A stretch of DNA of 35,687 bases from IMG/VR virus record IMGVR_UViG_3300007778_000019, positions 1 to 35,687 of that record. One strand, 5' to 3'. Below are positions 12,617 to 33,610 of this stretch, in pieces. The notes below the pieces were generated by a model. That model was not told the DNA's origin. It was given only the letters and a program-made list of their open reading frames with translations, and ran no database searches. Position 1 is the first letter of the stretch; each line of letters opens with the position of its first letter. The translations under genes were made by a program, and so were the position numbers. This DNA is from a virus. Lineage: Duplodnaviria > Caudoviricetes.

Positions 12617-15600
12617 ATGGCTCTAACTTTGGATAAAAATGTGGGCATTAAAAATGTGCCTGATAACAATGCAGATAAACTACTTAATTTAGCTAAGAAC
12701 AGTTTAGATAAAACTTTTGTTAATGATAACCAGGAAAAACTTCAACAGCATCTAGATAAGATTAATGCTGATTTAGAATCATCTTTAGAAACATACGCTG
12801 AAGCTGACAAGTCGTTACGTGAATACGAAGCAGCACAAGAAGATGCGTTTGTATCAAACTTAGAAGCCAATAGTGTAGCGGGTTCAGCACTGAATACTGG
12901 TGCTAGCCTATTATCTGGTGGTGTTCGTATTATAGGTGATGTATTTAGTGCACCTGCACGGCTTCAAGCTGCTGGGCTTGAAAGCAAATACGCTAAAGCT
13001 TTAGAAGCTGTAGACGTTGAACAAAAAGCTAAAGCTGAATTAGATACAATTAATTTAGAAGTATCAAAACACCAAAAATCTGGTACTTTAATTGATCTAA
13101 ACCTTCTCGAAAGACAGACCCAACTACAACAAGGCTTAACAGAAGCTACCAAGTACTTAGATGAGCAGTCTGCTATTGGAGTAGATGAATCAGTATTTAA
13201 TGCAGGTACTGGCCCTACAAACCGTCAGCAAGCTTTAGAAGCTATTAACTATCGTAAAGCAGTTGAACCACTCATTACTATTACTGAGATGGCTCAAGAA
13301 AATGCAAGTAAGCTGGTTAACCGTAACAAACAAAATGCTTTACTTGAAGAAGTACGTGTTGATGCAGAACAATCAGCTAAGTCATTCAATGAAGGTAATT
13401 ACGCAGATGCAGCTATCACAGCATTTACTGGATTTGCTAAAGGCTTAGTAAATAACCCAGGCGCAGCTACTGAACTATTTGCTGAATCTTACCCACAGAT
13501 GTTGCTGTCTGCTAAATTTGCTACTGGCAGCACAGCAGTACTGTTTGCACGTAATAATGACGATATTACTAAAGAATTTATTGAAGTTAATAAACGCAAT
13601 CCAACTGAACAAGAAAAAACTGTTATTGGTCAGTCAGCGTTAATTGCTGCTATAGCTGATGCAGCGTCAGACAAAATATTAATGCAAGGTTTACCGGCTA
13701 TTGCTGGTGCAATAGGTACTACAGCTAAAGCTGTAGGTATCCCATTAGAAATTGTAAGTAAGCCCTTTCAATCCTTGGTTCAACGCTTCCCTAAGACAGC
13801 TAAAACTGGTGAAGTTGCAGGGACTACAACCTTCCAACCAGTACAAGAATTCTTTTCTGGTGCTACTACCGAAGCAGCTACTCAATACGGTGTAAAACAA
13901 GACGCAGATAAGTTAGATACTCCTGAAATATTTACTCAAGGTATTGTAGAAGCTATTGCTGTTGGCCCTGTACAAGCAGCTAGAGGTGCTAAAGCTTTAA
14001 CACGTGAAACCGTCAAAGGTATTAACCAAGGGGCTAAAGTTCTTGTAGAACGTGCACAAGAAGATGTAGCCAATACTAGTGAACAAGCCAAAAGCTTTTA
14101 CAGTGAATTAACTTCACTAGATACTGAACTAACAGACTCTATTGAAGCACTAAAAGAAGATCAGTTAAGCCCTGAAGAATTTCAACAACAACTCAATGAC
14201 AGAGTTAAAAACATTGCTGAGCGTCAATTAGAAGCTGCACTGCAAGCTGTTGAAGATGTTGAAACCAATGAAAACTTAACATCTAAGCAAAAGCAAACTT
14301 ACGCTAAGGACATACGTGCATCATTAGAGAAAGCCAGAAGTCTTCAATTTGAGGATAACTTTGTACAAAAAGTAGGTTTTGTTCCTACTGATGACAATAT
14401 GGCTATTGCTGTTAATGAAATTATTGACGATACCTTTGGCAACACTGGTGCAATACCTGTCATCAAACGCAGGTACATGTTTGAAGTACTGCTAGATGAA
14501 TCCAGTGTAATAGACGATGACACTGTTACTCGTATTCTCGGTAGTAAAAACTTTAGCCGTAGTGAAAAACGAGCTATTACAGCTAAACAAAAGTTCAATA
14601 AACTATTAGAAGAACGAGCCAATAGCACTAACAAAACTTTTGAAGAAGTTCGTCAAGAAATATTCAAAGGAACTGACAGTACTCTAGGTGTAAAAGACTA
14701 CGAGTTAAGTATTCTACTTGGATTAACCAGTGGAAATACTGATTATGTAACTAAACAAGCTACCTTATTAAACAACTGGGTCGAAACACAAATCAATAAA
14801 GCTAGTGCTATTGATCAAGTACGTACTTACAACGAAGAAGTTCGCAGTCGAGTTACACCTGAAAACCGTATTCCATTAGCCAATGTAGAAATCACTGAGC
14901 GTGACAAAGCTGGACGTATTACTAAGTTTAAGCCACTTGGTTCAAAGACTGAATTAATCTATGACAGTCGTACTAAACGTGGTGAGAATGCTTTTGCTAA
15001 ATTGCAACGCACTGTACAAAGCGATACAGAGGCTTTGGTAACATTCCGTGATGTAATCAATGAATCTATCGCTACAACCCAAGACGTTGCTCCTGAAGCT
15101 TCACAGGAAGTCACAGAGACACCTGTACCCCCAGTAGAAATCCCTGAAGTATCTACTGAAGTTATTGATGAAAACTTTGAGCCAAATGAAGGCACTAACT
15201 CTATTGATGCTGACGACTTTGCACAATATGAAAACTATATTGATAATACTGAGCAAAACGAAGACCCAACACCTGCAATAGAAGTAGAACAGGTTATTCG
15301 TGATACTGCTTATGATGTCACTCCACCTCCTACAGGTAACATAAGCAAAGAAGCTTTATTTGAAGGTATGGAGTCACTGAGTGCTTGGATTGATCAGAAA
15401 TTTGATTACACTGTTAAGCGTGACTTACAAACAGCTATTTACAGTGTACTAGATGCTGTAAGGCGTGGTTTTGCACAACCTCACTTGGCTTTAGCTGATC
15501 CACGTGATCAAAGCATTAACTATTCTGACTTTAGAGCACTGCTACAAGTGTTTTCAGATGTAGATAGTCAAACACATGCTGAACTAGCTAAAGAAGGTTT

Positions 15601-18600
15601 TTATATCCCTAGCATTCTTGAAAAAGAATACTTAGCGGCTTATGAACAAAACCCAGATAAACCAGCTATTGAAGGTACTCTTAAAGAACGTATTGCTCGG
15701 TATGAAGATGAGTTTATCCGTGATTTAGGTGCTGTCCCTAGCATCCGTCTAGATGAATTTGTACAGAAAGGTATTACTGAAGGTAATCGTAATGCCTACA
15801 CGTACTTTTTACATGAAAAGATTCACATTGCTACTTCACGTTTTATTCAAGACAACCCGACAGATTCACGGGTTAAACGTTTAAAAGCATTATTTGAACG
15901 TGCTAAACGTATTGCAGCACAAGAACCTCAATTGTTTACTAACGCCAGTGATTACTGGCAAACCAACTTAGAAGAATTCATCGCTGAATCATTGAGTAAT
16001 CCAGAACTAATACTGGCATTAAAATCAATAACACTAACAGGAGAGAAGACTTCTAAATTAAATAACTTTTTCAAAGCGTTAATAGATACTATTGGCAATG
16101 CACTTGGATTCAGTTCATCACAAGCACAGACACTGTATGATTCAGCAGTCGCTGGATTTGCTGAAATAGCTACTGCACAAGCAGAAGTGGAAGATAGTAA
16201 ACAGACGGTGCGTAGACCTCGTACACGCAAACGTGTTCCAACGCAGCAGGAATTGATGGAACAGATTCCTATGTTTATGGAAGACAGTACGATTGTTAAC
16301 GAAGAATCTAGCTTTGAGCCTACAGCAACTGCTTTAGACGATTGGTTTAACAATACTGCACCTGCTTTTGTAGCAGCACCCCCAGAAATGACAGCATTAC
16401 CTTTTGGTATATCTGCACCTGAAGGATCTGAAACTACAGCTGAACAAATTTTAAACAAAGCAGAAGTTAATCCAACTATTGCTGAGAATATTGACGGTGA
16501 TGTTACTGTTAATAAACGTAGCTATGATCCAAAGTCTGATGTGACATTGATTACTGAAGGTAGAACCAGCAGTGTCTTAGCTCGCATTAGCAATTTCTTT
16601 GAGTCATACCGCAACAACACATTAGCTATCCCATTTGTTAGTCGTGAATCTGAAAATGGATTTAGAGTACTAGATAAGTTTGTTAAACAATTTGGTGAAG
16701 CATTTGTACCTGTGTTTGAGATTACTGACTTTAAAACAGCTAAAGGTCAGCAGTTTTCATTTTTACGTAAAATTAATAACCAGGATAAATTTAATTTAAA
16801 CCCAGCACTACATTTCTTCCACATGGTAACGTTTAAAGACAAAACAGTTACCTCACAGAGTGGGACATTTGCTTTACAAAAAGGTGCAGTAGATCCTAAC
16901 GTTATGTCAGCAATGGCCGTAGTAGCGTTTGAATGGTTAGCTACAGAAGCTAGCAACACACTGTACAACAATGATTATGCTATTCGTAAACTAATGGGTT
17001 ATAGCGATAACCAAGTTATCCCTAAATTTATTTACGAGCAATTATCTGAAGGTATGCCTAGATCACAGCTAGCAGATACTTTAGGTAAAGCATTTCTTAA
17101 GCAGTTTGATGCTAAGCTAAACCCAGAGTTAGTAGACCATTTAGCTAATGATCGTTTAGTAAAATCTATTGGTTTGCACATTATTGCTACCTTACAAAGC
17201 CAAGGATATATCAACACTAAACAAGTTAATTTAGGCAAACTAGGAGCATATGAAAATGATCCAGTGTTTGTGACTTTGGCTTACAAAGGTAAAGGACTTA
17301 ACAAACAACCTACAGCTGCTATAGAGTTATTTAGACAAAGCTATTCACCTAGCTTTTTCCAACAGATGTTTGGCATTGTACGTAAAGCTAGAGGGCCAAG
17401 CTTTAGGCCACGTAAACCATTAAAGTCTATTCACATTGGATTAAACGGTGAAGTTGGCAAAGATCGTGTAGCACTTGTTAACAAGCAACGTAGTGTGCCT
17501 TGGAACATTCGCAAAGATAAAGTACGTTTGTTAGATAAGCTAAGCCAAGGTGATGTAGCTACTGTAGACTTTGTTAAAAAGCTAATGGGTTACAACTTTG
17601 ATATTCGTAACAATACACCACTAGCTTTCCAGGAAAATGTTGAAGCTAAGAATCGTGAAATTGAGCGTGAGATTGCTCAAATTGTAGAATTCTATGAAAG
17701 CTATAAAGCTACAAATAATAAAGACTTTTACTTTGATTACGCCTTACAAGACAACATCCGTATGCGTGTTAACGGTAGTATTTTTAACTACCAAAGCACT
17801 AAGCTTGTACGTCATTTAATTTACAGCCCAGAATGGGGTGTACAAAAAGTAAGCAAGTCTGACCCAGCAGTAATGCATGGTTTACAAGAAGCTTTTGATA
17901 AACAATTTAGTTTTACTAGTGTTACTGGCTTACTACGTAATAAAGACATTAAAGCCGCATTAGCTGCATTAAAAGTAGGTAAAGTAGCTGACCCAGCTGT
18001 ACAAAATATAGTCAATGACGAATTACAATTAGATGCCTTGTACTACTTGTTGGATCATAGCCAAACCAAAGGCAAGTTAGTTACTACGCAATACGTAGTA
18101 GAAGCTGATGCTAAGACTTCAGGTATTATTCTGACTGAACGTATGTTCCCGTCAAATACACCAGAGTCTGATCAAATCTTAAGAGCAGGTGGTTTTTACA
18201 CCTTTAGTGATATACCCCAAAGCTTAGAAGAATTTGCTGCTGATAAAAGTAACCGTGATAACTATAACCGTTTAATTGATGTATGGATGCGTCATGTCAC
18301 AGGCATACTTGAAAACAACAAGAACCCTAAGTTACACCAGCTTACACATTTAATAGAGCTTAACCGTGATATAGCCAAAGTATTGGTAATGCCAGCATCT
18401 TACATGGCGGGCAACCAAGGCTTAATTGAAACACTGACTGAGCACTTCATTAAAGAATTAAGCTTTAAACTGGTAGAAGCTAAAGGCAATCCAGAACAGT
18501 ATCAATTACTGTTGGATCAAATTAATGCAGTCACTAATGGTAAGTTAACTACTGAATTGGATCTACGCACTGAGAGCTTACCTAAAGCTCTTGAGGACAA

Positions 18601-21600
18601 CTTACGTGCCCAGTTCACTACATTGTATGGATCAACGTTAGAAACAGCTCTAGAAGAGTTACAGACCCAATCTCGTGAACGAGCTAAGTTAGTTAACTTG
18701 TATACCAACATAGCTTATGCGGTATTTAAATTTAAGTTTGATAAATTCATTAATGGCATTAGCTCTAAAATTACTGAAGCCCAATTTAGAGATGAATTTC
18801 AGGCTTTCCTAGAACAAAATGCTCCTATCCTTGAGTACATTGATGCAAGTGTAAAAACTGAAGGTTACTTTGCAGCTAAAGTTGGACGTAAAAGCAGTCC
18901 AATGTTTAGCGATATTAACAATGCATCAGTTATTTTATCCGGTGGTAAACAATCAATTAGTGCTTATGTTAAGCAACTAGATTTTGATGCTCCAGGTGTT
19001 GCTGCATTTGTTAACGGTATTCAGTCACTGGATGCTGCTGGTATGGAAGGTGTGATTAAAAATCATACAGTCATGTCAGTATTTGATGCTGTACTCACTC
19101 CCCCTAGTTTGTTGACTGAAACTGTTAACACGTATGTACGAGCCATTGAAGATAACGCATCACGTTATAACATGCTGGATAACGCTGTAACGCTTATGCG
19201 TACTAGCCTTGATAGTTTGCGTACTAAAGATGACTCTGGGTTATTGAATGAATTTATTTCAACATTAAAAGATCAGCAAAAAAATAAAGCTTACAGTCGT
19301 TTAATTAAAGAACTTAAAGCAACTAAGGAACTTGATTTAACAGAAGCTACTCTTGCTGATATTGAAGCTTTGCTTGAAGCTGCACAACAAGAAGTAGACT
19401 TAAGCGAACAGGAACGTAGCACTTACAAATTACGTTTAAGCTCTGTAGATCATATGGAGTTTGCTCCAGGCAGACAAACCTATGAACTAGGCATTGAAGA
19501 CGAATTAGCCATTGATTTCACTAATGAAGAAACAGCCCAAAAAGGTCTTAAAAAGGTTGTGGATAACATTGTGGAGAACATCGACAAAGATGAAAACAAT
19601 GGTGACACACTAGGTAGTACGCCTTATAGTCGTAAAGACACATTTAATGCTCAAGAAACCCATGAGCTAAAAGCTGATAGCGTAGCTCAAGTGTATGACA
19701 ACTTAGAAGCTGTAGACCGACCTAACCGTGTCAATATCAGTGATACCCATGACTCATTGTTACGCAATGTAGTAAACACGTTAGTAGCTACTGTAATGCC
19801 AGCAATAGATGCATATGAACTTAGAGTTCGTACTATTGGTTCTAGCATTTATGCACAAATACGTCCTGACAATGTTATTGAGCTAACCAAGAACTACCGT
19901 CCTGTTAAGACTTTGGTTCAAATGTCAGCTAAAGAAGCTTACGTTCACGAATTGGCTCACTTAATCAGTAAGACAGGTATTGCTGATCCAGAAAATGCTA
20001 TTACTGTACGTAAATTAGATCAGCTAATGAGACGTGCAAAGCAAGAACTTAACAAAAAGTATGACGGTAAAGGTTGGAAGATTTTCTTACACACTGACAG
20101 TGACGGTAAGATTATTTATAAAACCAATAAAGCTGCAGAAGAAAAGGCAGCTAAAGAACAGTTTGATTACATCTTTAATAATCCAAAACTGGTACGTGTA
20201 CGTGTCAAAGTTAATGGTAAAACCCAAGACATTGATACACATGTTGGCTTACATGAGTTTGTAGCGTTTGGTTTAACCAATGAAAAGCTGAATGACTTCT
20301 TAAAAACTATTCCAGGTTACAAAATAGAAGACAATCGTGATGGTTCATTAGCAGCTGCTGTGAAATATTACTTTGATAAGATTGTATTCCGTTTAGCTCG
20401 AATGTTTGGTTCTAAAAACAACGTATCTGGCGATAAAGCGTTATATGACATGGTACTCGAATTAAATGAGTCACATCAGTTACGCTTAAACATGCTAGAC
20501 AAACTATTTGCTGGGCCAATAGACAGTCTGAACACTACTGTAGTCAATGCTTGGCGTAAGCATGTATTTGCTCCACTCAATCGTGCTAACTTGCGTAGGC
20601 TTACTTTAGAAGGTGCTGGGCCTAAAGAAGCTGTAGCTAGACTTACCTTTGGTAAATTGATTGATCCCCAAAACGCTTATTACAGTAGAGCACTCGGTGA
20701 AATGCGTAGACGCATGAATATTTCTACTGTTGGTTTTGTTCAAGAAATTGCTGCTGAAATATTTAATGCTAATTCACTGGTCTTTAAGAACGTAGAGAAA
20801 ATTTTATTACGTAGTCGTATTCTGATTGATCAACAACGTCAACGTGCTGTAGGTGCTATTACAGGCGATCTAGAAGCACAATTTGCTACGCCTATTGATA
20901 GACTTCAAGGTGAAGCATTAACTCGTGTATTTATGCGTACTGGGTTAACTGACATCTTTGGTGAAATTAACCGTAAAAACTACAAGAAAGTTATTTCTAC
21001 TTTACAAGATCCAAGTGTACGCATTAAAACAGCTGTAGCTACATTGTCAGCACTAGGCCCAATAGGTAATTTTTACATTAACCAAGCCAGAGGTTTAGGC
21101 ATCTACATGGCTAAAGGTTTAGTCACTGTTGAAGGTTTGGGTCTTAACGCTGAGCAGATTGTTCGTGCTGAAGTCGTTAAAGAAGCAGGTGGTCAAGTAC
21201 CATCAATGAATGCTGAAGAACGAGCCAAAGCTAAACAAGCTATTGATGATTTAGCTAGTTTAATTGCTATTCAAAATACTAGCCGTGATATGCGTAATAC
21301 TGCTGTAGACCTAATTAACTCTGAGTTCGAAGCTAACAAACAATTTAATGGCATTCAATTTTTCAGTGGTCAGTTAGCATTACATCGTGCAGAGTCTTTG
21401 GTTAAAAACTTCCAAGGCAATGAAATGCTCACTACCAAAGGCTACGTTAAAAATGTCTTTGATAAGTTTATGTCATTTAAAGTTTTGCCTTACCCTGTAT
21501 CAGGTGAAGACGCTATAGCATTGAAAAAAGCTGGGTACACTTATTACCAACAGTTGCCTACTGATCCTAATGATCCACTAAGTCAAACAATGGCTATGTA

Positions 21601-23209
21601 CACTAACCCTGTAGGTGGGTTAGCTATGCGGGATAGGGGTGTACTGGCTATGTCTGATTTACGCGCAGCAGGTACATCATTCTATGATGGCAGTGCTAAC
21701 GCATTATCTGGCAAAAACCATTACATTGCTAAACACAATGAAGTAAACAAAGTCAGTAAAAACAATAAAACCAGTATTCTTACTCAGCTAACCACTGCCA
21801 ATTACAGCAGTCAATCGAGTAACGTATTACTGCCTGTACGTAACGAAGACGGTAAAACAGTTGATTACCGTTATGTCATGAGTGATGAAACACGTACTAA
21901 CCTACTAAACCAAGAAGTCTATGCACCTTTGTTGTTAGGTGAAATGATGGCTGCAATCAAAGAAAAGCAGGATGTTAAAGGCAACAACCGTGCAATGATT
22001 GATGCACTCAAATTAGACTTTGAGAAAAACTTCACTAAAGAACGCAAAGACTTTGTTTACATTGGTTCAGATTCTACTGATCCAAAAATACAGCAAATCT
22101 ACCGTATGTTGCCTAAAGACAGTCGTGATTACATCACTAAGCAGTTTGGCAAAAGCTTTTATGTACGTGAAGAGATTCTTGAAAGTGTCTTTGGTAGAGC
22201 TAAGTACAGCCTAGCTGAAGCACTTACCACTAAAACTGGCGGTGCTAAGATGGCTAAGCTCATTGAGTTATTGCTTCAAGAGTTGGTTCAGTTTGGTAAA
22301 CGCACTATTGTTATTCGTTTCCCTCAAGTACTGCGTGACAACGTAATATCTAACACATTGTTTGGTGTAGCCCGTGGTGTACCACCTACCTACATGATGA
22401 GTAAACAAATTGAAGGTGTACGTCATATTCACAACTACTTGAAAGATGCTTACGAACAACGCCGTTTAGAAAACCAACTAAATGCACGTAAAGATTCATT
22501 AACTGCATCTCAACGTAAAGATTTAGGTAATCAATTATCTAGTGTTATAGGCCGTATTAATAGCAATCCAATTATGCCATTGATTAAAGCTGGTTTATTT
22601 CAAACCATTGCTGATGAAATTGAATTGGCAGAACATGGTGCTTCATTTAGTGATAGATATCTTGAGGATCTTACAGATCGCCTTGGATCAGCATTAAACA
22701 TTAGTCGTGACAAAGGCGTAGGGAAAGGACTGAAAACAGCCGTAGACTTTGCTTACATGGGTACTGATACCGCTATATATAAGTTTATGTCTACAGCCAC
22801 TCAGTATAGTGACTTTGTAGCAAGATACGCTGTGTACTCGTACAAAGTGAAGAAAGGTCAAGAAATTGGTCAAGATGTTAGTGAACAAGAGCTTCTGCAA
22901 CAAGTTCAAGATATGTTTATTAACTACGAGACTATGACTAACTCTAAGCTAGAGTACGCAAGTTCGATTGGTTTTGTTATGTTTAGTAAGTATCCATTAC
23001 GTATTGTACGTGCATTGGTTACTGCATTCAGAGAAAACCCTGTGCAAATGGTAGCGTTACTAGCTGCTCAGGAAATTTTAAACACTGATGCACCTGAGCC
23101 AATGGATTCAGCAACAAGTATGTTGAATATTATGAGTTTGCCTACAGAAGCTTTAAGTGCAGCTGCTACACCTGCAGGTCTAAGATTACTAGGTGTTACG
23201 TTAGATTAA
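12617..23209 (+). CDS. Virion-encapsidated RNA polymerase (N4 gp50-like), 3530 aa
   Basis: Size and synteny. T7-type motifs: A VEADAKTSG (~18101), B RDIAKVLVMPASYMAG (~18365), C SVFDAV (~19085). C-terminal TQYSDFVARY...FINY...GFVMFSKY. No cysteine seen. Confidence 0.95.
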   Translation: MALTLDKNVGIKNVPDNNADKLLNLAKNSLDKTFVNDNQEKLQQHLDKINADLESSLETYAEADKSLREYEAAQEDAFVSNLEANSVAGSALNTGASLLSGGVRIIGDVFSAPARLQAAGLESKYAKALEAVDVEQKAKAELDTINLEVSKHQKSGTLIDLNLLERQTQLQQGLTEATKYLDEQSAIGVDESVFNAGTGPTNRQQALEAINYRKAVEPLITITEMAQENASKLVNRNKQNALLEEVRVDAEQSAKSFNEGNYADAAITAFTGFAKGLVNNPGAATELFAESYPQMLLSAKFATGSTAVLFARNNDDITKEFIEVNKRNPTEQEKTVIGQSALIAAIADAASDKILMQGLPAIAGAIGTTAKAVGIPLEIVSKPFQSLVQRFPKTAKTGEVAGTTTFQPVQEFFSGATTEAATQYGVKQDADKLDTPEIFTQGIVEAIAVGPVQAARGAKALTRETVKGINQGAKVLVERAQEDVANTSEQAKSFYSELTSLDTELTDSIEALKEDQLSPEEFQQQLNDRVKNIAERQLEAALQAVEDVETNENLTSKQKQTYAKDIRASLEKARSLQFEDNFVQKVGFVPTDDNMAIAVNEIIDDTFGNTGAIPVIKRRYMFEVLLDESSVIDDDTVTRILGSKNFSRSEKRAITAKQKFNKLLEERANSTNKTFEEVRQEIFKGTDSTLGVKDYELSILLGLTSGNTDYVTKQATLLNNWVETQINKASAIDQVRTYNEEVRSRVTPENRIPLANVEITERDKAGRITKFKPLGSKTELIYDSRTKRGENAFAKLQRTVQSDTEALVTFRDVINESIATTQDVAPEASQEVTETPVPPVEIPEVSTEVIDENFEPNEGTNSIDADDFAQYENYIDNTEQNEDPTPAIEVEQVIRDTAYDVTPPPTGNISKEALFEGMESLSAWIDQKFDYTVKRDLQTAIYSVLDAVRRGFAQPHLALADPRDQSINYSDFRALLQVFSDVDSQTHAELAKEGFYIPSILEKEYLAAYEQNPDKPAIEGTLKERIARYEDEFIRDLGAVPSIRLDEFVQKGITEGNRNAYTYFLHEKIHIATSRFIQDNPTDSRVKRLKALFERAKRIAAQEPQLFTNASDYWQTNLEEFIAESLSNPELILALKSITLTGEKTSKLNNFFKALIDTIGNALGFSSSQAQTLYDSAVAGFAEIATAQAEVEDSKQTVRRPRTRKRVPTQQELMEQIPMFMEDSTIVNEESSFEPTATALDDWFNNTAPAFVAAPPEMTALPFGISAPEGSETTAEQILNKAEVNPTIAENIDGDVTVNKRSYDPKSDVTLITEGRTSSVLARISNFFESYRNNTLAIPFVSRESENGFRVLDKFVKQFGEAFVPVFEITDFKTAKGQQFSFLRKINNQDKFNLNPALHFFHMVTFKDKTVTSQSGTFALQKGAVDPNVMSAMAVVAFEWLATEASNTLYNNDYAIRKLMGYSDNQVIPKFIYEQLSEGMPRSQLADTLGKAFLKQFDAKLNPELVDHLANDRLVKSIGLHIIATLQSQGYINTKQVNLGKLGAYENDPVFVTLAYKGKGLNKQPTAAIELFRQSYSPSFFQQMFGIVRKARGPSFRPRKPLKSIHIGLNGEVGKDRVALVNKQRSVPWNIRKDKVRLLDKLSQGDVATVDFVKKLMGYNFDIRNNTPLAFQENVEAKNREIEREIAQIVEFYESYKATNNKDFYFDYALQDNIRMRVNGSIFNYQSTKLVRHLIYSPEWGVQKVSKSDPAVMHGLQEAFDKQFSFTSVTGLLRNKDIKAALAALKVGKVADPAVQNIVNDELQLDALYYLLDHSQTKGKLVTTQYVVEADAKTSGIILTERMFPSNTPESDQILRAGGFYTFSDIPQSLEEFAADKSNRDNYNRLIDVWMRHVTGILENNKNPKLHQLTHLIELNRDIAKVLVMPASYMAGNQGLIETLTEHFIKELSFKLVEAKGNPEQYQLLLDQINAVTNGKLTTELDLRTESLPKALEDNLRAQFTTLYGSTLETALEELQTQSRERAKLVNLYTNIAYAVFKFKFDKFINGISSKITEAQFRDEFQAFLEQNAPILEYIDASVKTEGYFAAKVGRKSSPMFSDINNASVILSGGKQSISAYVKQLDFDAPGVAAFVNGIQSLDAAGMEGVIKNHTVMSVFDAVLTPPSLLTETVNTYVRAIEDNASRYNMLDNAVTLMRTSLDSLRTKDDSGLLNEFISTLKDQQKNKAYSRLIKELKATKELDLTEATLADIEALLEAAQQEVDLSEQERSTYKLRLSSVDHMEFAPGRQTYELGIEDELAIDFTNEETAQKGLKKVVDNIVENIDKDENNGDTLGSTPYSRKDTFNAQETHELKADSVAQVYDNLEAVDRPNRVNISDTHDSLLRNVVNTLVATVMPAIDAYELRVRTIGSSIYAQIRPDNVIELTKNYRPVKTLVQMSAKEAYVHELAHLISKTGIADPENAITVRKLDQLMRRAKQELNKKYDGKGWKIFLHTDSDGKIIYKTNKAAEEKAAKEQFDYIFNNPKLVRVRVKVNGKTQDIDTHVGLHEFVAFGLTNEKLNDFLKTIPGYKIEDNRDGSLAAAVKYYFDKIVFRLARMFGSKNNVSGDKALYDMVLELNESHQLRLNMLDKLFAGPIDSLNTTVVNAWRKHVFAPLNRANLRRLTLEGAGPKEAVARLTFGKLIDPQNAYYSRALGEMRRRMNISTVGFVQEIAAEIFNANSLVFKNVEKILLRSRILIDQQRQRAVGAITGDLEAQFATPIDRLQGEALTRVFMRTGLTDIFGEINRKNYKKVISTLQDPSVRIKTAVATLSALGPIGNFYINQARGLGIYMAKGLVTVEGLGLNAEQIVRAEVVKEAGGQVPSMNAEERAKAKQAIDDLASLIAIQNTSRDMRNTAVDLINSEFEANKQFNGIQFFSGQLALHRAESLVKNFQGNEMLTTKGYVKNVFDKFMSFKVLPYPVSGEDAIALKKAGYTYYQQLPTDPNDPLSQTMAMYTNPVGGLAMRDRGVLAMSDLRAAGTSFYDGSANALSGKNHYIAKHNEVNKVSKNNKTSILTQLTTANYSSQSSNVLLPVRNEDGKTVDYRYVMSDETRTNLLNQEVYAPLLLGEMMAAIKEKQDVKGNNRAMIDALKLDFEKNFTKERKDFVYIGSDSTDPKIQQIYRMLPKDSRDYITKQFGKSFYVREEILESVFGRAKYSLAEALTTKTGGAKMAKLIELLLQELVQFGKRTIVIRFPQVLRDNVISNTLFGVARGVPPTYMMSKQIEGVRHIHNYLKDAYEQRRLENQLNARKDSLTASQRKDLGNQLSSVIGRINSNPIMPLIKAGLFQTIADEIELAEHGASFSDRYLEDLTDRLGSALNISRDKGVGKGLKTAVDFAYMGTDTAIYKFMSTATQYSDFVARYAVYSYKVKKGQEIGQDVSEQELLQQVQDMFINYETMTNSKLEYASSIGFVMFSKYPLRIVRALVTAFRENPVQMVALLAAQEILNTDAPEPMDSATSMLNIMSLPTEALSAAATPAGLRLLGVTLD

Positions 23210-26010: not shown

Positions 26011-28144
26011 GAGTTAACTTACGCATTACTGACACAAGAATCGTATTGTCGATCTCATCAACAGGTAACGGATTCTTGAGGTTATTATTGAATGCATAGA
26101 CTGCACTACGTACACCGTCATAGTCATAACCACTATCTACCAATACATAAGCATACTTAATTAATGTATTAGATCGGTTACCTGAACCAGCTTTCAATAA
26201 AAACCAACGCTCTAAGTTATTTAAGGATGCATAATCCATAACTTTCTGGTGGTGTTCTGTTTGTTTTTTAGTATCAGGAATAAACAACAAAGCATCTAGC
26301 ATTGCACCGTCTTGATAGTAGTAATCACCAGCATACGCTTCCCACTTACGGGCAATGTCTTTACCAGCGTTATCTACTTCAAAGGGCAACCATTCAAACA
26401 CGTTTTCCATAAACTGTTTGTAGATTGTTGGATCTAACTTAACAGTATGGCTTAACGGTAGAATAATCCTATAACGGTTATTCTCAGGAGTATGGCGTTT
26501 AGTGGTAGCAAACAATGCTTTGTAATCTTTAAGCAAAGATCGAGCAGCATTCAATGTTGTACCATCGTCTACGTCAATAATGACCAGATTAAAGCCAGGA
26601 ATAGCATTGTCACTATTGCGGTATTTATCCACAAAGTGATGAGCTGTGTAGTGCAATCCAGAGGTAGATGTTAGTTTATGTAACTGATCCCAAGGTGCAT
26701 ATTCTGACTCAAAGTTTTGAGTAATATCCTGAGAGTATGAACAGGTCAATTTATTGAGGTCAGTACGGTCAAGTGTTTCACCGCTAAAGAACTCAATGTT
26801 GTCTGTCATGCTAGTACGAATAATAATATTATTACGATAACCCCAAGCAATAGCTTGGCTCATAATATCTCTACGTTGAGCATTACCCCCCTTATAGAAT
26901 GGCAAGTCTTCACTTAATTCTACTTGGGTTACTTCTTTACGAACTTCAGCCAAATAACGTGCTACACGTTCATAAGCTTTGGGTCGTTCAAGAATTTCAA
27001 GGAATGCCATACCAGAATCTTCTACAAGGCGTATAGCAGCTTCTAAATGGTATGACTGCATACTAGGGGAGCTATCAATAAAAGCGTAAGCTCCAGCTAG
27101 CTTCAGAGCCTTGTAATAACGGTGACTAAGTTCAGCTTTCTGCAACTCTTCAAAGTCACGCATTTGCTCTGCACGTTCTTCACAATCTAGTTTATAACGC
27201 AGTAGATCAATACTGATTTGCTTACTGACATCAATGCTTAAATTAAAGTTGATTGGATCAGCTAGCTTCTCCATCATAGCACTGAGTGCATCTAAGTCCT
27301 GATCAATAGACGTGTCTGTAAGCTGTTTGTAGGCTTCTTCTGGGGTAGGTGTACCCAACTTATTCACTTTACGTGAATAGCCAAACAAGCAACGTCTAGC
27401 GTAGCCTGTATCCAACATAGAAATAAATTCTTCTTCGGTTTTACCACCGTTAAGCAATTTACTGGGTGTACCATACAGCATCATATTGGCAGGTGTACGA
27501 CCATCTAATTGCTGACCACGACGATTCTCTGATGTATTTTTAGTCAGCTTTTGTTTTACTTTACCTACGTCATACAATTCTAAGAAGGTAGCCAACACTT
27601 CAGCATTACCTAACAGATTAGATCCCATCTCGTCCATTTCTAGGTTGATAGCACCTGCATTAGCCATCAGTAATTGCTGACGCATTTGCTTAACAGCAGG
27701 TGTAGTACCTGAGTCAAAGCTGAATACTAATGGCCCTAAAGTTTCAAACTCATGCTTTAAAATTTCCAGCATACTAGAAACGTCTAAACCAGATTTAGCT
27801 GCACGAAGATTAGCCATCTTGTTCAAGTTATTTTCTACTTGTATGGGATAGGTCTCTTGCATATAAACATCTTTAAAGCCTTGAAGTACCAAGTCTTCCA
27901 TAATGTTAGTAGAAAAGCCTTTACCAGAACCAGACACACTCAGGTTAATGGCATAAGTATTAACAGGAATAACACCACGATCAGTGGTATTAATGTCAGT
28001 ACGCATTAACGCTGCTATTTTAGAAAAATAATAAGCAACCAAAATTCTAAAGAATTGTGGGTTATTGTTTTGGGTCTTTTTGATCAGAGCATTTACTAGC
28101 TTTTCTTGCGGAGCAAAATAAGCCATATCTTCTATGAGTTTCAT
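26000..28144 (-). CDS. DNA primase with an N-terminal P-loop ATPase domain (N4 gp43-like)
   Basis: SGSGKGFS Walker A, EMDEMG, FDSGTTPAVKQ, IIDVDDG and TTKRHT primase motifs; C-terminal GNRSN.L (PriCT-like). Confidence 0.9.
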   Translation of the reverse strand: MKLIEDMAYFAPQEKLVNALIKKTQNNNPQFFRILVAYYFSKIAALMRTDINTTDRGVIPVNTYAINLSVSGSGKGFSTNIMEDLVLQGFKDVYMQETYPIQVENNLNKMANLRAAKSGLDVSSMLEILKHEFETLGPLVFSFDSGTTPAVKQMRQQLLMANAGAINLEMDEMGSNLLGNAEVLATFLELYDVGKVKQKLTKNTSENRRGQQLDGRTPANMMLYGTPSKLLNGGKTEEEFISMLDTGYARRCLFGYSRKVNKLGTPTPEEAYKQLTDTSIDQDLDALSAMMEKLADPINFNLSIDVSKQISIDLLRYKLDCEERAEQMRDFEELQKAELSHRYYKALKLAGAYAFIDSSPSMQSYHLEAAIRLVEDSGMAFLEILERPKAYERVARYLAEVRKEVTQVELSEDLPFYKGGNAQRRDIMSQAIAWGYRNNIIIRTSMTDNIEFFSGETLDRTDLNKLTCSYSQDITQNFESEYAPWDQLHKLTSTSGLHYTAHHFVDKYRNSDNAIPGFNLVIIDVDDGTTLNAARSLLKDYKALFATTKRHTPENNRYRIILPLSHTVKLDPTIYKQFMENVFEWLPFEVDNAGKDIARKWEAYAGDYYYQDGAMLDALLFIPDTKKQTEHHQKVMDYASLNNLERWFLLKAGSGNRSNTLIKYAYVLVDSGYDYDGVRSAVYAFNNNLKNPLPVDEIDNTILVSVMRKLTQKN

Positions 28145-29118
28145 AATATTAATTGTCCTTTGCGAATATAATCGTGCGCTTGTTCACATATGCTGACTGC
28201 AGGGCAGTACCTACAAAAGCCAACACTTCCCTCTACAGTAACGATTTCACCAATAGATCCATCGTCTACATACCTTTGGTATGCTTGCCAATATTCATCA
28301 AAGTTCTTAGTGCTTCTTGTTTTATTGGCTGGATTTTTATAGTACTTATAAACTGCTGGACGTTGCCAAATCTCTTCTGCAGTACATACAGGCATAGCAC
28401 TTTGGTCAAGATCTTTATATCTAATTAATTCGTTTAATTTATTTGCTATAAAGGCTTCAGTTTCCCCAGGGGTCATTAAGGGATACTTTTCAGTAACAAT
28501 GCGAGATTTAGGATACGTTGGATCAGACTTAGCTTTAACTGCAGACCAATCAGTAAAAATATACTGAATACGCATATAGTCTTCAGTAATTAAATCTGGG
28601 TTAAGCCACCGATAAATACTACCTTGCTCAATATACTTTTGCTTATTGCTTTGGTTAATCCAATTAAACGTACTTGTAGATTTAAAGTCTTCTAGTACGC
28701 CATCACAAATAAAGTCGAATTTACCTGTAATTGTAAAACCTAGAAGTTCACGTTCACGACGTATTTCCATATAAATAGGAATGCTATCTTCAGTTAAATC
28801 TTCTGGATTAGGATTAACTACAATATTGTTGCGTATTTTGTTAGGTAGATTTAATTTAGCTAACGTATCATTTAGATCAGTTTTTAACCAAGCTTGCTCA
28901 ATAGCAGTATGTAGTGCAGTACCCATCCGACTAGGTACAAGGTCTAATACATCAACTGAAGCTGCTTGAGTAGGAATACTAGAACTAAGTAAAATACTTT
29001 TTGTAGGTTTTAAAAGGCTAGTAGCACTTAGCGTATTAGTGTCTTTATTATGGTCATAGTCATCATCAGCTAACCAGACAGCAATACTCATGCTGAGATT
29101 GTTTAAATTTGTAAGCAT
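28141..29118 (-). CDS. PD-(D/E)xK exonuclease (N4 gp42-like)
   Basis: SRMGTALH, GKFD...EDFKST, QGSIYRWLNP and a C-terminal C...CRYC.....C cluster. GAGG SD before ATG at 29118. Confidence 0.88.
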   Translation of the reverse strand: MLTNLNNLSMSIAVWLADDDYDHNKDTNTLSATSLLKPTKSILLSSSIPTQAASVDVLDLVPSRMGTALHTAIEQAWLKTDLNDTLAKLNLPNKIRNNIVVNPNPEDLTEDSIPIYMEIRRERELLGFTITGKFDFICDGVLEDFKSTSTFNWINQSNKQKYIEQGSIYRWLNPDLITEDYMRIQYIFTDWSAVKAKSDPTYPKSRIVTEKYPLMTPGETEAFIANKLNELIRYKDLDQSAMPVCTAEEIWQRPAVYKYYKNPANKTRSTKNFDEYWQAYQRYVDDGSIGEIVTVEGSVGFCRYCPAVSICEQAHDYIRKGQLIL

Positions 29119-29217
29119 GATAAACCTCTGGTTCATTGCATGTATGTGATAGGGGGTAGTTCGTTGTAGCTACAGGTGAACCACTCCTGCGGAGGCACGG
29201 TTGAATAACCAAAACCG

Positions 29218-29805
29218 TTAGCTAAACATCTCGTAAATCTCTTTAGCAGTAGCATCACCGGAAAGCTTTGTACTGCAGGACATGTTAGGATAGAGCACTT
29301 CTAGCTCTGCTTCAAGGCCAACTTCGCTGTGGATAAGTTCACTGCACGGTATCGTACACATTGCATTTATTAGACGATTATTTATCCAAGCCAATAAATT
29401 AGGATCAGCTTTTACTAAGTAATACTGACTGTCATGGATCTGTGCTATAGGCAATATTTGATGGCTTAAGTTAGCTTCAGCAACTTCTTCCATAAACTTA
29501 ATAGCACTGTAATTATTCAGCAACCCATAAGACTGACCTAGCGCATTACCTGCTGTTCTGCCTTCAGCAGCTGCTTCAAACGGCATATGAGAGCGATTAA
29601 GCAATGTTTTATGTAATACTGGTGTCCTTACCCTAAGTCCAAAAGCAACTTCAATATAACCGTCCTTAGAGGCTTTCAGAAGCTTATCTTGAACCCATTC
29701 ATCACTGGCTTTGTAAAGTTCATGATAATTGTCTTCAATTTGTTTAGCTTCTTTTGGATCAAAGCCTAGGTTATTGACTAATGTATGCCAGGTTCCTTGG
29801 TACGT
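29218..29805 (-). CDS. DNA polymerase A, piece 3b: second half of motif B to the C-terminus
   Basis: TYQGTWHTL...FGLRVRTP...AEGRTAGNALGQSYGLLN...QIHDSQY (motif C). Similarity begins only at TYQG; the first 14 aa of the listed ORF from 29847 are out of the polymerase frame. Confidence 0.88.
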   Translation of the reverse strand, partial: TYQGTWHTLVNNLGFDPKEAKQIEDNYHELYKASDEWVQDKLLKASKDGYIEVAFGLRVRTPVLHKTLLNRSHMPFEAAAEGRTAGNALGQSYGLLNNYSAIKFMEEVAEANLSHQILPIAQIHDSQYYLVKADPNLLAWINNRLINAMCTIPCSELIHSEVGLEAELEVLYPNMSCSTKLSGDATAKEIYEMFS

Positions 29806-29948
29806 TACGTAAGAGCAAAGGTTGGACCCTTGCTCTTCTGCCTCCATTGACTGTATTTAGTCTCAATACTATTAATTTGAATACGGTTAAATTCACTATT
29901 ACTGATTTCGTGAATAGAATCAGGTTTATTTGATATGTGGATTTCCAT
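29805..29948 (-). CDS. DNA polymerase A, piece 3a (47 aa; not in the ORF track): first half of motif B
   Basis: Read by hand: MEIHISNKPDSIHEISNSEFNRIQINSIETKYSQWRQKSKGPTFALT*. INSI..KY...RQ.SK.PTFALT is N4-type motif B. Confidence 0.85.
   Translation of the reverse strand: MEIHISNKPDSIHEISNSEFNRIQINSIETKYSQWRQKSKGPTFALT
29811..29837 (-). promoter_or_regulatory. 12-bp mRNA hairpin immediately 5' of the ACG-TAA interruption (candidate recoding signal)
   Basis: mRNA AAGAGCAAGGGU-CCA-ACCUUUGCUCUU has 11 Watson-Crick pairs plus one G-U pair that forms only on the coding strand. Confidence 0.6.
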
Positions 29949-30516
29949 TAACTCTTGCTCTTTCTTGTTTCTGTCTTAACAACTCGGCATCTAGTAAATG
30001 TTCAATGCCTTGTTCTTTAGCAATTTTACGTATTTTTGTAGAAAGATACGGCACTCTATACGGTAGACGTAAAGATAGACTGTAATAGCTTTCACCTTCC
30101 AATACATCATGTAAACATTGGATAAACTCTTCTTTTGTAAGTCTACTAGTATATGTTTTAAGTCCTGTTCTAACTGCATGAATTGCATTTCCTTGACGTG
30201 TACACCACTCTAAATTACTAACCTGGTTATTTAACCTATCACCGTCTATATGGTTTACTTCAGGCAAGTTAAGTGGGTTAGGTATCCATGCTATAGCAAC
30301 AAGTCGGTGTACATACTTAGTGTATTGCTTACTATCTTTCCACAAACTTACTTGTGGGTATTTTAACCGTTTATTAGGTCTTGCACTTAATATTCTAGAT
30401 GGGCGTGGATAATAAACACCATCCCTACCTAAAACATATCTAGCTATAGATTTCACTACACCTGTGTCGCTTACAGCATATGAATCTTCAAAGCCTGTTA
30501 TTGGTAAAAAGTTCAT
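29926..30516 (-). mobile_element. NUMOD4-HNH homing endonuclease inserted in the DNA polymerase gene
   Basis: FLPITGFEDSYAVSDTGVVKS (NUMOD4) and VHRLVA.AWIPNP.NLPEVNHIDGDRLNNQVSNLEWCT..GN..HA (HNH). GGAG SD before ATG at 30516; overlaps both flanking polymerase pieces. Confidence 0.93.
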
Positions 30517-31069
30517 AAAATTCTTCTCCAGTGTATGCACTATTTTTGTATTTTATAGTATCACCAGATGTAAAACAAATGTCGGTGCCATTTACATTTG
30601 CACAGTATGTTTTTAATGCACTATTTTCAGGTATTTGACGTATGTCTGGCATTTGGTCTTTAAAGTACGCATAAGCTCTGAGACAGTGGCCATCGTATCC
30701 ATCCTCATAGACTTTCAATTTATTTGGATCTTTTGTTGTCAATGCAGCAATACGGTCTTCCAGACTAGAAAAGTCAGCGCCAATTAATACCCAGCCTTCA
30801 GGAGCTACAAAACACTTTTTAAACTTCTTAGCGTAAATAGTACCAGTAGACGGTAGATTCTGTAAGTTAGGATTACTACTGCTCATACGACCAGAAACAG
30901 TACCACCTAAATTAAAGTTACCATGTAAATAATGCCTACCGTCTGCTTTAGGTATGCTTTTATTTTTAAACGCTTTGATAAATGTATTTTGTAACTTGTT
31001 AATTTCAGCTAGGACATTAATGCTCTTTAACAACCGTAAAGCTTCAAGAGCTTCTTGTTTGGTTTTCAT
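30488..31069 (-). CDS. DNA polymerase A, piece 2 (end of thumb, palm motif A)
   Basis: GGTVSGRMSSSNPNLQNLP, IGADFSSLEDRI (motif A) and DGYDGHCLRAYAYFKDQMPDI, then a ~50-aa extension. Confidence 0.92.
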   Translation of the reverse strand: MKTKQEALEALRLLKSINVLAEINKLQNTFIKAFKNKSIPKADGRHYLHGNFNLGGTVSGRMSSSNPNLQNLPSTGTIYAKKFKKCFVAPEGWVLIGADFSSLEDRIAALTTKDPNKLKVYEDGYDGHCLRAYAYFKDQMPDIRQIPENSALKTYCANVNGTDICFTSGDTIKYKNSAYTGEEFYELFTNNRL

Positions 31070-32538
31070 AAGGCATCATACTCTTCGTCAGAAATATTGA
31101 ACTTAGTCTTAAGTTGACTAATAAGTTTTTTAACAGTTTTATTCCCAGTAGCAGGTAACCCAGTATCAGTAGTATCAATAACATCAAAGCCAATATGGTC
31201 ATATAACAACTTGGTTAGATGTACTGTACTTCCTGGGTTAAACAATACTTTGCAATCATCTAAAGACACCACTTTACGTTTTAGTGCTTTATTTCTGTTA
31301 ACAAATTCTTCTTTAGTAAGTGCCCATTCAAAGTCTTTAACTAACTGACTATGTTGGATCACTTGGTTATGTTGCTCACGTAAATCATTAAGTTCTTGAT
31401 CCAAGGTATCTACAACAGACATGTCCATTGGCATACCTACTAATTCCATTTGTGTAATGTTCTTTAACGCTGGAATAAATAGGTTCTTGTAAATGTCGAG
31501 TTGGTTATCTTGAACCAAAGTAGGGTAATGTTTACTGTAGGCATAGTGCGTAGATAAGGCGTCTACTAAATTATATTCTAACAGTTCTTTTTCAGGTATT
31601 TGTGTAATGTCATGAATCTGCTCTTGAGCATAATCACCTGCAAATTCAAAAGCTATAGCTTTCAAACTTAAATTATTACCTGTAGTAGAATTAGTAGCCA
31701 AATAAGCAATTAACTTAGTATCGTGCACTTTACGGTACATAACATCTAATCCTTGGATCATGCCTTCATAATCCAATGGGTGTTGCATAAATAAGTGATA
31801 CACAATGCAACGTATGTCGAATGTAGCGTTATGCCACATAGTCGTACCAGAATATGTACAAAAAAACTTTTTAATTGCAGGTATATTTTCGTCAGTAATT
31901 CTAAAAGCAATACCTTCATGTTGGTTCCAGGCAAAGCTAATCGTAGCAGGTACAGCTTTAGCCAGATCCAAACCATAAGTTTCAATGTCACAAGACAGCA
32001 TGGAATGCTGATGTAGTTTAGATAGTGTTGTTTCAACCTGAGAGAGCGTTTCAGGGTAATAAGCACTGTGTATGATGTTATGCCCTAGCTCTGTATAAGT
32101 CCCCTGTAACCAGCTGTTAAGGGTTTTTAAACTCAAGTCTAATTTGTCTTGTAATGCTGGGTTATGGAACAGTGCTTGATAATTAACACCGTAAATAATG
32201 TTTATGTGTTCAAAGTTTTTGATAGCACAAGGAATCACATAACCATAACAAGGTTCAGTCTTTGCTTTCTTGGTTAAAAACTTAAAATAAGCTGAATCTG
32301 CAACATATAACGTCTTAATATTATTTTCATTTAAGATGGGTAATATATGCTGCAGGTACTCTTTAGCAATAGCGGCTGTAATTTTATTATTATCTGGATA
32401 CTCCAGTGATAAAGCTACTACAGAGCTATTAATAAACCTAACATAATAGGAGTACAACAAGTCATAGCTACAGGCTTTGTCTTTAATAAGCAAAGCTACG
32501 CTAGGAAATTCATCCGGTGTAAAATGGTACTCTTTCAT
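31066..32538 (-). CDS. DNA polymerase A, piece 1 (N-terminal domain, 3'-5' exonuclease, start of thumb)
   Basis: ExoI CDIETYG, ExoII HNATFD, ExoIII YNLVD; thumb FNPGS...LLYD and TGLPATG. Confidence 0.92.
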   Translation of the reverse strand: MKEYHFTPDEFPSVALLIKDKACSYDLLYSYYVRFINSSVVALSLEYPDNNKITAAIAKEYLQHILPILNENNIKTLYVADSAYFKFLTKKAKTEPCYGYVIPCAIKNFEHINIIYGVNYQALFHNPALQDKLDLSLKTLNSWLQGTYTELGHNIIHSAYYPETLSQVETTLSKLHQHSMLSCDIETYGLDLAKAVPATISFAWNQHEGIAFRITDENIPAIKKFFCTYSGTTMWHNATFDIRCIVYHLFMQHPLDYEGMIQGLDVMYRKVHDTKLIAYLATNSTTGNNLSLKAIAFEFAGDYAQEQIHDITQIPEKELLEYNLVDALSTHYAYSKHYPTLVQDNQLDIYKNLFIPALKNITQMELVGMPMDMSVVDTLDQELNDLREQHNQVIQHSQLVKDFEWALTKEEFVNRNKALKRKVVSLDDCKVLFNPGSTVHLTKLLYDHIGFDVIDTTDTGLPATGNKTVKKLISQLKTKFNISDEEYDAL

Positions 32539-32546
32539 TAGATTGC

Positions 32547-32744
32547 CTATTTGTCATCATAAGTATTAGCTTTAACAATTGCTGCCAATTCTTCTGTGGC
32601 TTCTAGCAAATCTTCAAACTCGTCAAACAACTCATCATTAATATAAATGTACGTACCGTGCTCTTCATGCTCAATACGAATAGAGTTGCGATTTGATGCA
32701 AATAAATCTTCAAGTAAAATAAGTTGGTTTTTATGGAATCCCAT
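32547..32744 (-). CDS. Hypothetical acidic protein (65 aa)
   Basis: AGGAG SD; ends 8 nt before the polymerase start. Confidence 0.7.
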   Translation of the reverse strand: MGFHKNQLILLEDLFASNRNSIRIEHEEHGTYIYINDELFDEFEDLLEATEELAAIVKANTYDDK

Positions 32745-32778
32745 AATCAGTCTCCTATAGCTTCTATTATTTTCTTAC

Positions 32779-32805
32779 AAAAAAAAGCCCTACACGAGGT
32801 AGGGC
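32779..32805 (-). terminator. Rho-independent terminator
   Basis: Minus strand GCCCTA-CCTCGTG-TAGGGC followed by T8, in an intergenic gap. Confidence 0.85.
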
Positions 32806-32865
32806 AAGGTATAACTGTAGGGGAGTAAACTAATGCGTCTTTGCAAAGTTCACTTCAACTATAGT

Positions 32866-33045
32866 TTACGTTGTTGCTGCTTGCCACTCAACTTGAACGT
32901 GCCAAATTTGATTCTTTTTAATACTAGCTATGGATAGCCAAGTCTTTTTGTTCTTAATTGATTCTTCATCAATTTTGCTTAATACATACTCTAAATTTGA
33001 ATTGGTGTATAAACTTGTTGGATTATAAGTTTTATTTTTAGCCAT
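32866..33045 (-). CDS. Hypothetical protein
   Basis: GGAG SD before ATG at 33045 (MAKNK...); co-oriented with neighbours. Confidence 0.55.
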   Translation of the reverse strand: MAKNKTYNPTSLYTNSNLEYVLSKIDEESIKNKKTWLSIASIKKNQIWHVQVEWQAATT

Positions 33046-33087
33046 AGTTCTTAACTCCGCACACTCTAAACCTAGATATAAATGCAC

Positions 33088-33273
33088 TTACTCGCCCCTG
33101 TAAACTTCTTTAGGGTACATATCTTCCATTGTGTCACCGTATCTATCGTATTGACGTAAATATTTAGACATTGTGCTGTAAGACACGCCAAATTCACTGT
33201 GAAACCATTTAACAGGCATACCTTTTAACCACAATGCATAAGCTTCTTTCATTTCATTAATTGAAATTAACAT
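33088..33273 (-). CDS. Small putative helix-turn-helix protein
   Basis: AYALWLKGMPVKWFHSEFGVSYSTMSKYLR fits an HTH pattern; the start abuts the upstream stop. Confidence 0.6.
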   Translation of the reverse strand: MLISINEMKEAYALWLKGMPVKWFHSEFGVSYSTMSKYLRQYDRYGDTMEDMYPKEVYRGE

Positions 33274-33274
33274 A

Positions 33275-33460
33275 CTATTGTCCTGAGTAATTAACAGTAA
33301 TTTCTTTATCATCTACGTAAGCATCACAACTGCTACAATAAATCTCAGGATAAAAGTCTTTGGGTTCAAAGCGTTGAGTGTCTATCTCCCAGCCTACTAA
33401 GGCTACATACAGAAGTTCACCGTCACATAATGAACAGACTCGGTTTATTGTTTGGTTCAT
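33275..33460 (-). CDS. Small zinc-ribbon-like protein
   Basis: CSLC...YCSSC pairs; GAGG SD. Confidence 0.65.
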   Translation of the reverse strand: MNQTINRVCSLCDGELLYVALVGWEIDTQRFEPKDFYPEIYCSSCDAYVDDKEITVNYSGQ

Positions 33461-33463
33461 AAG

Positions 33464-33610
33464 CTAGTCCTCATTGTTATGTTGACTAGCACATCCTTCC
33501 ATAAATTCATCAGCTAAATTAAAAGCTGTAGGTATTAAAGCGGTTGGATCCAAATCACTGCGTGTAGCTAGTGCTATCAACAGTAATGCAGCTAGTTCGT
33601 CAGTATTCAT
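33464..33610 (-). CDS. Hypothetical protein (48 aa; not in the track)
   Basis: MNTDELAALLLIALATRSDLDPTALIPTAFNLADEFMEGCASQHNNED*; fills the gap between neighbours. Confidence 0.6.
   Translation of the reverse strand: MNTDELAALLLIALATRSDLDPTALIPTAFNLADEFMEGCASQHNNED

Follow-up and report, generated by a model that had tools for sequence, protein, structure and literature searches.

A stop-containing five-base insert in polymerase motif B of uncultured N4-like phages, probably crossed by a hairpin-stimulated ribosomal hop

To our knowledge, natural programmed bypassing occurs in few settings, namely the gene 60 family, the yeast mitochondrial byps and the Hau3-type terminases. The gene 60 element of phage T4 contains a 50-nt translational bypass whose gap protects it from nicking by MobA (10.1101/2022.08.31.505936). 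Pairing of the exiting mRNA has been proposed as the forward driver of this bypass, and the events at the mRNA exit are its main unsolved problem (10.1101/2024.12.09.627546). Of the terminase bypass of the Streptomyces phage Hau3, with three such genes known, a UAA variant has been confirmed in E. coli by mass spectrometry (PMC10732093). In the account of a 2016 review, hops over an in-frame stop were known from constructs only, at a low level, and from no natural gene (PMC5009743). Hairpins upstream of the shift site stimulate +1 shifts on 70S ribosomes, in that report only without RF2 (PMC6321510).

The DNA analysed here, which we call the window, comprises an entire virus record (35,687 bases) with a family A DNA polymerase gene on its minus strand, and the closest relatives of this polymerase are those of Schitoviridae (N4-like) phages. 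Motif B is unbroken in N4, where it reads KAPTFALTYQGT, whereas in the window the five bases TAACG stand between its Thr and Tyr codons. The interrupted locus has a conserved anatomy, composed of a 47-codon leader, a GGAG, a hairpin, a Thr codon, a stop, a matched RCN codon, a Tyr codon and an intact frame (Table 1). The most probable reading of this arrangement, in our judgment a good deal likelier than its rivals together, is a programmed +5 ribosomal hop, which would be stimulated by the hairpin and would rejoin motif B of the polymerase across the 5-nt insert. The polymerase is split a second time at window 31066-31069, around N4 residue 492, where its pieces share an ATGA overlap; in L004 an additional ORF occupies this place.

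Table 1. Features of the polymerase locus in the window (positions in the 35,687-base record).
Feature	Position	Strand	Remarks
Polymerase piece 1 (3'-5' exonuclease)	31066..32538	-	ATGA stop-start overlap joins it to piece 2
Polymerase piece 2 (motif A)	30488..31069	-	3' end is a conserved element-encoded tail of ~50 residues, 30491-30640
NUMOD4-HNH endonuclease ORF	29926..30516	-	PF13392, PF07463; overlaps both polymerase pieces; no intron detected
Leader ORF, 47 codons	29805..29948	-	~24 element-encoded residues, polymerase segment INSI...KSKGPTFALT, stop
Shine-Dalgarno-like UGGAGG (Trp-Arg codons)	29841..29846	-	3 nt 5' of the hairpin
mRNA hairpin, 12 bp with a 3-nt loop	29811..29837	-	ends at the take-off codon; predicted forward-driving stimulator
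Mini-stem UACG-UAA-CGUA	29801..29811	-	not conserved
Predicted take-off codon ACG (Thr, leader codon 47)	29808..29810	-	followed by TAA, CG, TAC
5-nt insert TAACG	29803..29807	-	stop TAA 29807-29805 overlaps the predicted landing codon ACG 29805-29803
C-terminal polymerase frame, 194 codons	29218..29802	-	starts at the motif B Tyr (YQGTW...), has motif C (QIHD); PF00476; 470 phage records

The tail-HNH-leader-gap architecture of the T4 element is found in the window cassette. As in T4 gene 39/mobA/gene 60, an HNH gene splits an essential replication gene, the C-terminal tail has ~50 aa (~44 in T4), the leader has 47 codons (46 in T4), and a take-off codon is followed by a stop and a matched landing codon, with wobble of the same tRNA; both elements are spread across host lineages with repeated insertion, and both show stepwise loss, in which the nuclease is lost and the gap kept, or both are lost and the split kept (10.1101/2022.08.31.505936). 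The interrupted gene differs, being the family A polymerase at motif B (PF00476) here and the large subunit of topoisomerase II, at Gly46/Asp45, in T4. The take-off codon encodes Thr here and Gly or Asp there, and the gap measures 5 nt here and 20-50 nt there (10.1101/2022.08.31.505936). The main stem and the SD lie 5' of the take-off codon in the window, and the 5-nt form is without the take-off stem and the landing mini-SD of T4. The leader has no similarity to gp60. The tail (30491-30640) resembles the C-terminus of T4 gp39 (L197:2282-2461) weakly (E 0.00037, probability 36%; third of 5,001 against shuffles), a likeness that may hint at a shared joining module, and no topoisomerase was found among the 26 scanned of its 55 profile matches (50% clustering). 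The cassette would work like gene 60 bypassing, yet it does not belong to the MobA element: the gene, the codon and the gap are others, the leader is unrelated and the tail is only weakly alike. The word 'polymerase' does not occur in the main text of the study of the T4 element (10.1101/2022.08.31.505936).

The other described systems each share a part of the arrangement. The Hau3 bypass is similar in its short gaps (10 and 7 nt) and its proposed 5' stem-loop with a flanking SD, and differs in its trigger, the rare codon UUA, and in its proposed regulatory role; the relevant passages draw no link to an endonuclease (PMC10732093). The synthetic 'stop hops' of Weiss et al. 1987 likewise have matched codons around a stop and include +5 and +6 hops (PMC5009743), while the arrangement here is natural, conserved, equipped with stimulators and apparently needed for an essential enzyme. 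In prfB and in the hairpin-stimulated +1 shifts, a duplex 5' of the P site also favours a forward move at a stop; there the shift is of a single base and SD and hairpin are alternatives, while here they stand in tandem (PMC6321510). A free-standing endonuclease that cuts a gene whose halves reassemble is found as well in Aeh1 nrdA/mobE and phage 25 gene 43, for which the relevant passages describe no recoding gap (PMC2988022). We found no published report of a 5-nt polymerase cassette in the literature covered, with few subscription journals and, for the preprints, their main texts.

The insert is a real, non-coding, frame-breaking block inside a conserved ORF, as the initial annotation had held. 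Contigs from all three near-identical runs (X1-X3), which differ from the window by 1 to 3 letters over ~2.8 kb, bridge the site without gaps; because the window may itself derive from these runs, we place the weight on diverged phages. A search for the motif with TRR directly behind it returned the 5-nt form in 11/11 loci. When the five bases were left free, a metagenome scan gave 29 matches, 20 of them to this polymerase (the other 9/29 were dropped as something else), and stop-C-N was present in 20/20; with codon 47 also free, 11 of 41 matches were verified and 30/41 dropped on the same ground, and ACN-stop-C was present in 11/11 of those verified. A scan that allowed any gap of 0-30 nt, with CAA as the only Gln codon, found 101 loci with gap 0, 6 with gap 5 and no other verified length (4/111 were unverified). 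Altogether, 24 distinct junctions from diverse phages carry the insert, every one with the Thr codon, the stop and the overlapping RCN codon, and their downstream identity to the window is 42-78%, near-copies of the window apart. An assembly artefact was rejected on the gapless contigs together with the recurrence of the same insert across diverged phages. The downstream frame is under purifying selection in 10/10 pairs (dN/dS 0.01-0.20), and motif C is kept in 26/29 printed frames, the three misses being contig ends. All carriers of the 5-nt form are uncultured. A GTDB scan for the insert gave 0 matches, and no cultured phage with this form was among the matches listed in two DNA searches. 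The related-locus search with the C-terminal piece alone gave no match.

The codons on both sides of the stop are related in a way that a hop would require. The triplet five nucleotides past the take-off codon is RCN in 24/24 junctions, and in 18/24 it shares its third base with the Thr codon, a count that 0/100,000 permutations reach; among 18 hand-picked representatives the match holds in 13 (p 0.0004). The codons for take-off and for landing are thus matched and non-overlapping, a defining trait of bypassing. The six third-base misses are ACG to ACA (2), ACT (2) or GCT (1) and ACC to GCT (1). Such landing codons could be read by wobbling tRNA-Thr species. All three stop codons occur in the insert, and a stop codon would occupy the A site at the predicted take-off in 20/20 loci of the scan in which the insert was unconstrained. 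The codon match cannot be the product of a recent duplication, because the insert starts with TA or TG, whereas the Leu codon preceding the take-off is CTT or CTC in every case. Against the hop, landing would be on GCN in 9/24 junctions, where the first base differs and the re-pairing from ACN to GCN requires a first-position U-G pair.

The hairpin 5' of these codons agrees with its first description, according to which it has 12 bp and a 3-nt loop, ends exactly at the take-off ACG-UAA and contains one non-canonical pair that is G-U on the mRNA strand only. On refolding, the minus strand at 29837-29811, AAGAGCAAGGGUCCAACCUUUGCUCUU, which encodes KSKGPTFAL, gave a stem of -15.7 kcal/mol (z -4.5; 1/200 shuffles equal), and the plus strand of the same positions gave -11.8, with a mismatch in the stem. 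Among the 8,864 in-frame 27-mers taken from 13 long ORFs of the window, none folds more strongly (runner-up -11.3). The initial annotation had suggested a comparison with synonymous codons, and as stable a fold was obtained in 11/20,000 recodings under the codon usage of the window and in 15/20,000 under uniform usage. Its other suggestion, to look for the hairpin together with the insert in homologues, was borne out among 21 distinct interrupted and 86 distinct intact regions (rows with <75 upstream bases were dropped), in which the last 27 nt before the junction fold at a mean of -11.8 kcal/mol when interrupted and -3.0 when intact. An equally stable hairpin in intact homologues, which was to count against a stimulator, was seen in none of the 86 (best -8.3) but does occur at -16.6 in L315. 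The Ala codon of the stem is GCT in 21/21 interrupted and 34/86 intact regions, and the Ser codon is AGC in 18/21 and 11/86, respectively. Both the rarity of equally stable recodings and the association of hairpin and insert support the proposal that the codons here were selected for a recoding stimulator.

The outer pair of the stem is A-U in 9, G-C in 8, G-U in 1 and unpaired in 2 of 20 aligned rows. No shuffle (0/500) reaches the covariation score of the stem, in a control that ignores relatedness; to be set against the hop is that the covariation comes mainly from one pair and that the sequences, being related, do not count as independent samples. The usual 5' arm is lost in L001 and L003, where a new arm is formed from other codons, with the stem end still at the take-off. 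Against the link of hairpin and insert, a search by the stem motif gave 18 matches, 14 interrupted and 4 intact, two of the latter at -10.8. The terminator scan did not list the hairpin as an intrinsic terminator, and the stem is followed by ACGUAA with no U run. A mini-stem around the stop, UACG-UAA-CGUA, had also been put forward; its sequence is present in the window, but it is complete in only 5/24 junctions and absent from the 71- and 141-nt folds, so that we rejected it as a conserved signal and regard it as a likely by-product of the ACGTA repeat.

The reading given in the initial annotation included neither the conserved SD nor the link to an HNH element. GGAG occurs 5' of the stem in 21/21 interrupted and 5/86 intact regions, the anti-SD duplex has -9.4 in the former and -2.9 in the latter, and hairpin and SD features are found together in 21/21 versus 3/86. 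The first base of the GGAG lies at -32 to -40, except in L001 and L003, whose SD has moved to -52, and the motif is encoded by different residues, namely WR, KE, GE, EE, RR and IRS codons. The conserved mRNA elements expected of a bypass, a putative stimulatory hairpin and a GGAG, are therefore both present.

In the proposed hop, the ribosome would pause with peptidyl-tRNA-Thr on ACN and the stop in the A site, the internal SD would pair with the 16S rRNA, and the hairpin, its 3' arm still in the ribosome, would zip on exit and pull the mRNA through. The peptidyl-tRNA-Thr would be released and re-pair five nucleotides on, such that decoding would resume at Tyr and yield ...PTFALT-YQG as in N4; the stem would then end 5 nt before the P-site codon. 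Against this scheme, by the geometry of the ribosome, a stem that ends at the take-off codon cannot form fully while this codon is in the P site. Also to be set against it, with regard to efficiency in the presence of release factors, is that the hairpin-stimulated +1 shift needed the absence of RF2 (PMC6321510). As for its purpose, the insert would spoil the target of the element's own nuclease without a change of protein, much like the 50-nt gap of T4 towards MobA; such a protection would fit the association of HNH and insert. The insert likely arose from a 5-nt overlap comprising the last two bases of a Leu YTR codon and the Thr codon, which would create the take-off, a TRA stop and the landing in one step; this origin fits the intron site of phage nACB1 described below, where the 3' exon starts TA-ACA-TAT.

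It is unlikely that the hop is real and the inverted repeat acts on DNA, altering or masking the nuclease target, or rides neutrally with the element. Conservation could partly be descent, since the element carries the whole stretch along, and a stem as strong as that of the window is found in an intact, HNH-split gene. This gene is that of L315, a contig from a bin titled Fusobacteriaceae, which has an intact motif B behind a different HNH and no GGAG, and which is possibly a revertant or a precursor. A repeat without a role in mRNA is opposed by the G-U pairs, functional on the mRNA strand only, in 5/20 rows, by the 5' arm rebuilt elsewhere in L001 and L003 with the 3' end unchanged, and by the unrelated hairpins and SD-like runs 5' of the single-base class of loci described below. 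Very unlikely, in turn, is a -1 (or +2) shift that restores the frame and adds residues to motif B. A -1 shift after Thr would meet no stop in that frame at the junction and would give a similar insertion everywhere, [VL][TA] ahead of Tyr, but neither the -1 nor the +2 triplet offers a match to tRNA-Thr, there is no slippery run, 0/101 intact genes have extra codons at the site, the third-base match is left unexplained, and a -1 shift is opposed by upstream hairpins (PMC6321510).

Two further readings appear to us highly improbable, and to the same degree. In the first, the nascent hairpin drives RNA polymerase past five template bases without copying them, or five bases are excised from the RNA. 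Nascent hairpins can drive polymerase slippage, and the cultured relative nACB1 has a group I-like intron at nearly the same site; in a skip, however, only three bases would re-pair, with an A-C mismatch required in nine junctions, five bases cannot self-splice, most inserts are without a terminal G, the Rfam scan gave no intron in the window, and the invariant stop and SD are left unexplained by either event. In the second, the SD and the looped-out hairpin form a start site and the C-terminal part is a separate chain. Ribosome-binding sites that accommodate a hairpin are known in T4, which gives a precedent, the SD is strong and the gene is already split twice, but no start codon is conserved at the junction (TTG, CTG, GTA, CTA or TTA by locus), motif B would be cut between Thr and Tyr, and the matched codons would be needless. 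A dead gene or an assembly error is barely credible, even with every carrier uncultured and X1-X3 a possible source of the window, against the same insert in 24 diverged junctions and the selection and motif C retention of the downstream frame given above.

The programmed hop, as we propose it, belongs to a cassette for which a selfish nuclease gene is the likely vehicle. In 18/24 junctions the gene directly upstream is of one HNH family, while 5/24 are fused genes without this HNH directly upstream and one is too short; the HNH sits between the ~50-residue tail of the upstream piece and the leader, whose start is mostly 138 nt before the take-off. A nuclease search over 51 of 64 database parts gave at least 12 full-length matches, six of them the sources of the queries; in each of the remaining six, motif B is interrupted, by a gap of 41-48 nt in five and by a single base in one. 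In the split loci without the nuclease (L278-L281, L283, L285; the sequences of L282 and L284 end before the junction), tail and leader are kept, other genes or a short spacer stand in for the HNH, and there is no insert. In a tree built from the downstream 130 residues, 11 changes are required to account for the 22 insert rows, and at least 3 of these changes are forced. That the 5-nt state arose only once in the host gene was rejected by the AU test (p 1.9e-50), run on a quick tree with 130 columns and 36 intact rows picked after the first tree had been seen. The boundaries of co-conversion are unmappable because the closest intact sisters, with 63-92% DNA identity, are too distant. In the cultured N4-like phages Pylas, AlfredRasser, SP5M and Pollock (L012, L289, L290, L291), another HNH, ~36 codons further upstream, is accompanied by a related tail and no insert; two of these records join the CDS as spliced, and the layout resembles a split gene.

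Relatives break motif B in other ways. At the same codon, L201, L204, L206/L207, L208 and L300 have gaps of 41, 48, 47, 45 and 48 nt, respectively, in the order ACN, strong internal hairpin, stop, purine-rich run and ACN landing, behind a weaker 5' stem (-5.3 to -11.3); the internal hairpin has a C-UUCG-G loop in L201 and L208. These loci, in which features similar to the gap stem-loop and mini-SD of T4 are present, are candidates for a gene 60-like bypass. A scan for further long gaps gave 3/19 real cases, all three of them previously identified in this analysis. In L310/L313, L311 (= L209), L312 and L314 (5 loci, 4 distinct), a single base is added at the Phe codon, giving TTT-C or TTT-T, and each locus lies behind an HNH, of several families. 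Directly 5' of the base they carry a hairpin and an SD-like run, with folding energies of -10.1 to -20.5 in the five, compared with -3.7 (best -11.2) in the 86 intact regions. They form a candidate +1 frameshift class. Their stem ends about one codon before UUU, so that after either move the stem would be 4-5 nt behind the P-site codon.

Acinetobacter phage nACB1 (OQ032511) has an unannotated group I-like intron in the motif B Leu codon (L288:3534-4380), which encloses the same HNH family (50%); it is the sole cultured phage with this nuclease. The intron matches RF00028 at E 3e-7 and 4e-4, below the gathering score, and among 8 loci only that of nACB1 matches. The main text of the nACB1 genome paper mentions neither the intron nor the HNH nor the polymerase. 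A group I intron at the insert of the window was rejected, the Rfam scan of window 28000-33500 having no RF00028 match.

We are inclined to see in these loci a second, independent family of endonuclease-borne recoding cassettes, in N4-like polymerases, in which one module of SD and hairpin would drive the 1-nt shift at UUU-Y, the +5 stop hop and the 41-48-nt bypasses, with the group I intron as a fourth solution. If true, the 5-nt form would be a minimal natural bypass, in which an SD-anchored hairpin alone pushes the ribosome past a stop with an efficiency that suffices for an essential enzyme, and the forms together would provide a graded series for the origin of long bypass gaps. As the signal is reduced to ~50 nt with natural variants, the model in which exiting mRNA drives the ribosome becomes directly testable. 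The loci also suggest that recoding has been enlisted time and again by homing endonucleases as a shield for their own target, and that annotation currently records polymerase genes of this kind as broken.

Elsewhere in the window, in which no tRNA gene and no known RNA family was found, a 3,530-codon ORF (12617-23209), whose first 1,128 residues have no firm Pfam match, has the size of an N4-type virion RNA polymerase.
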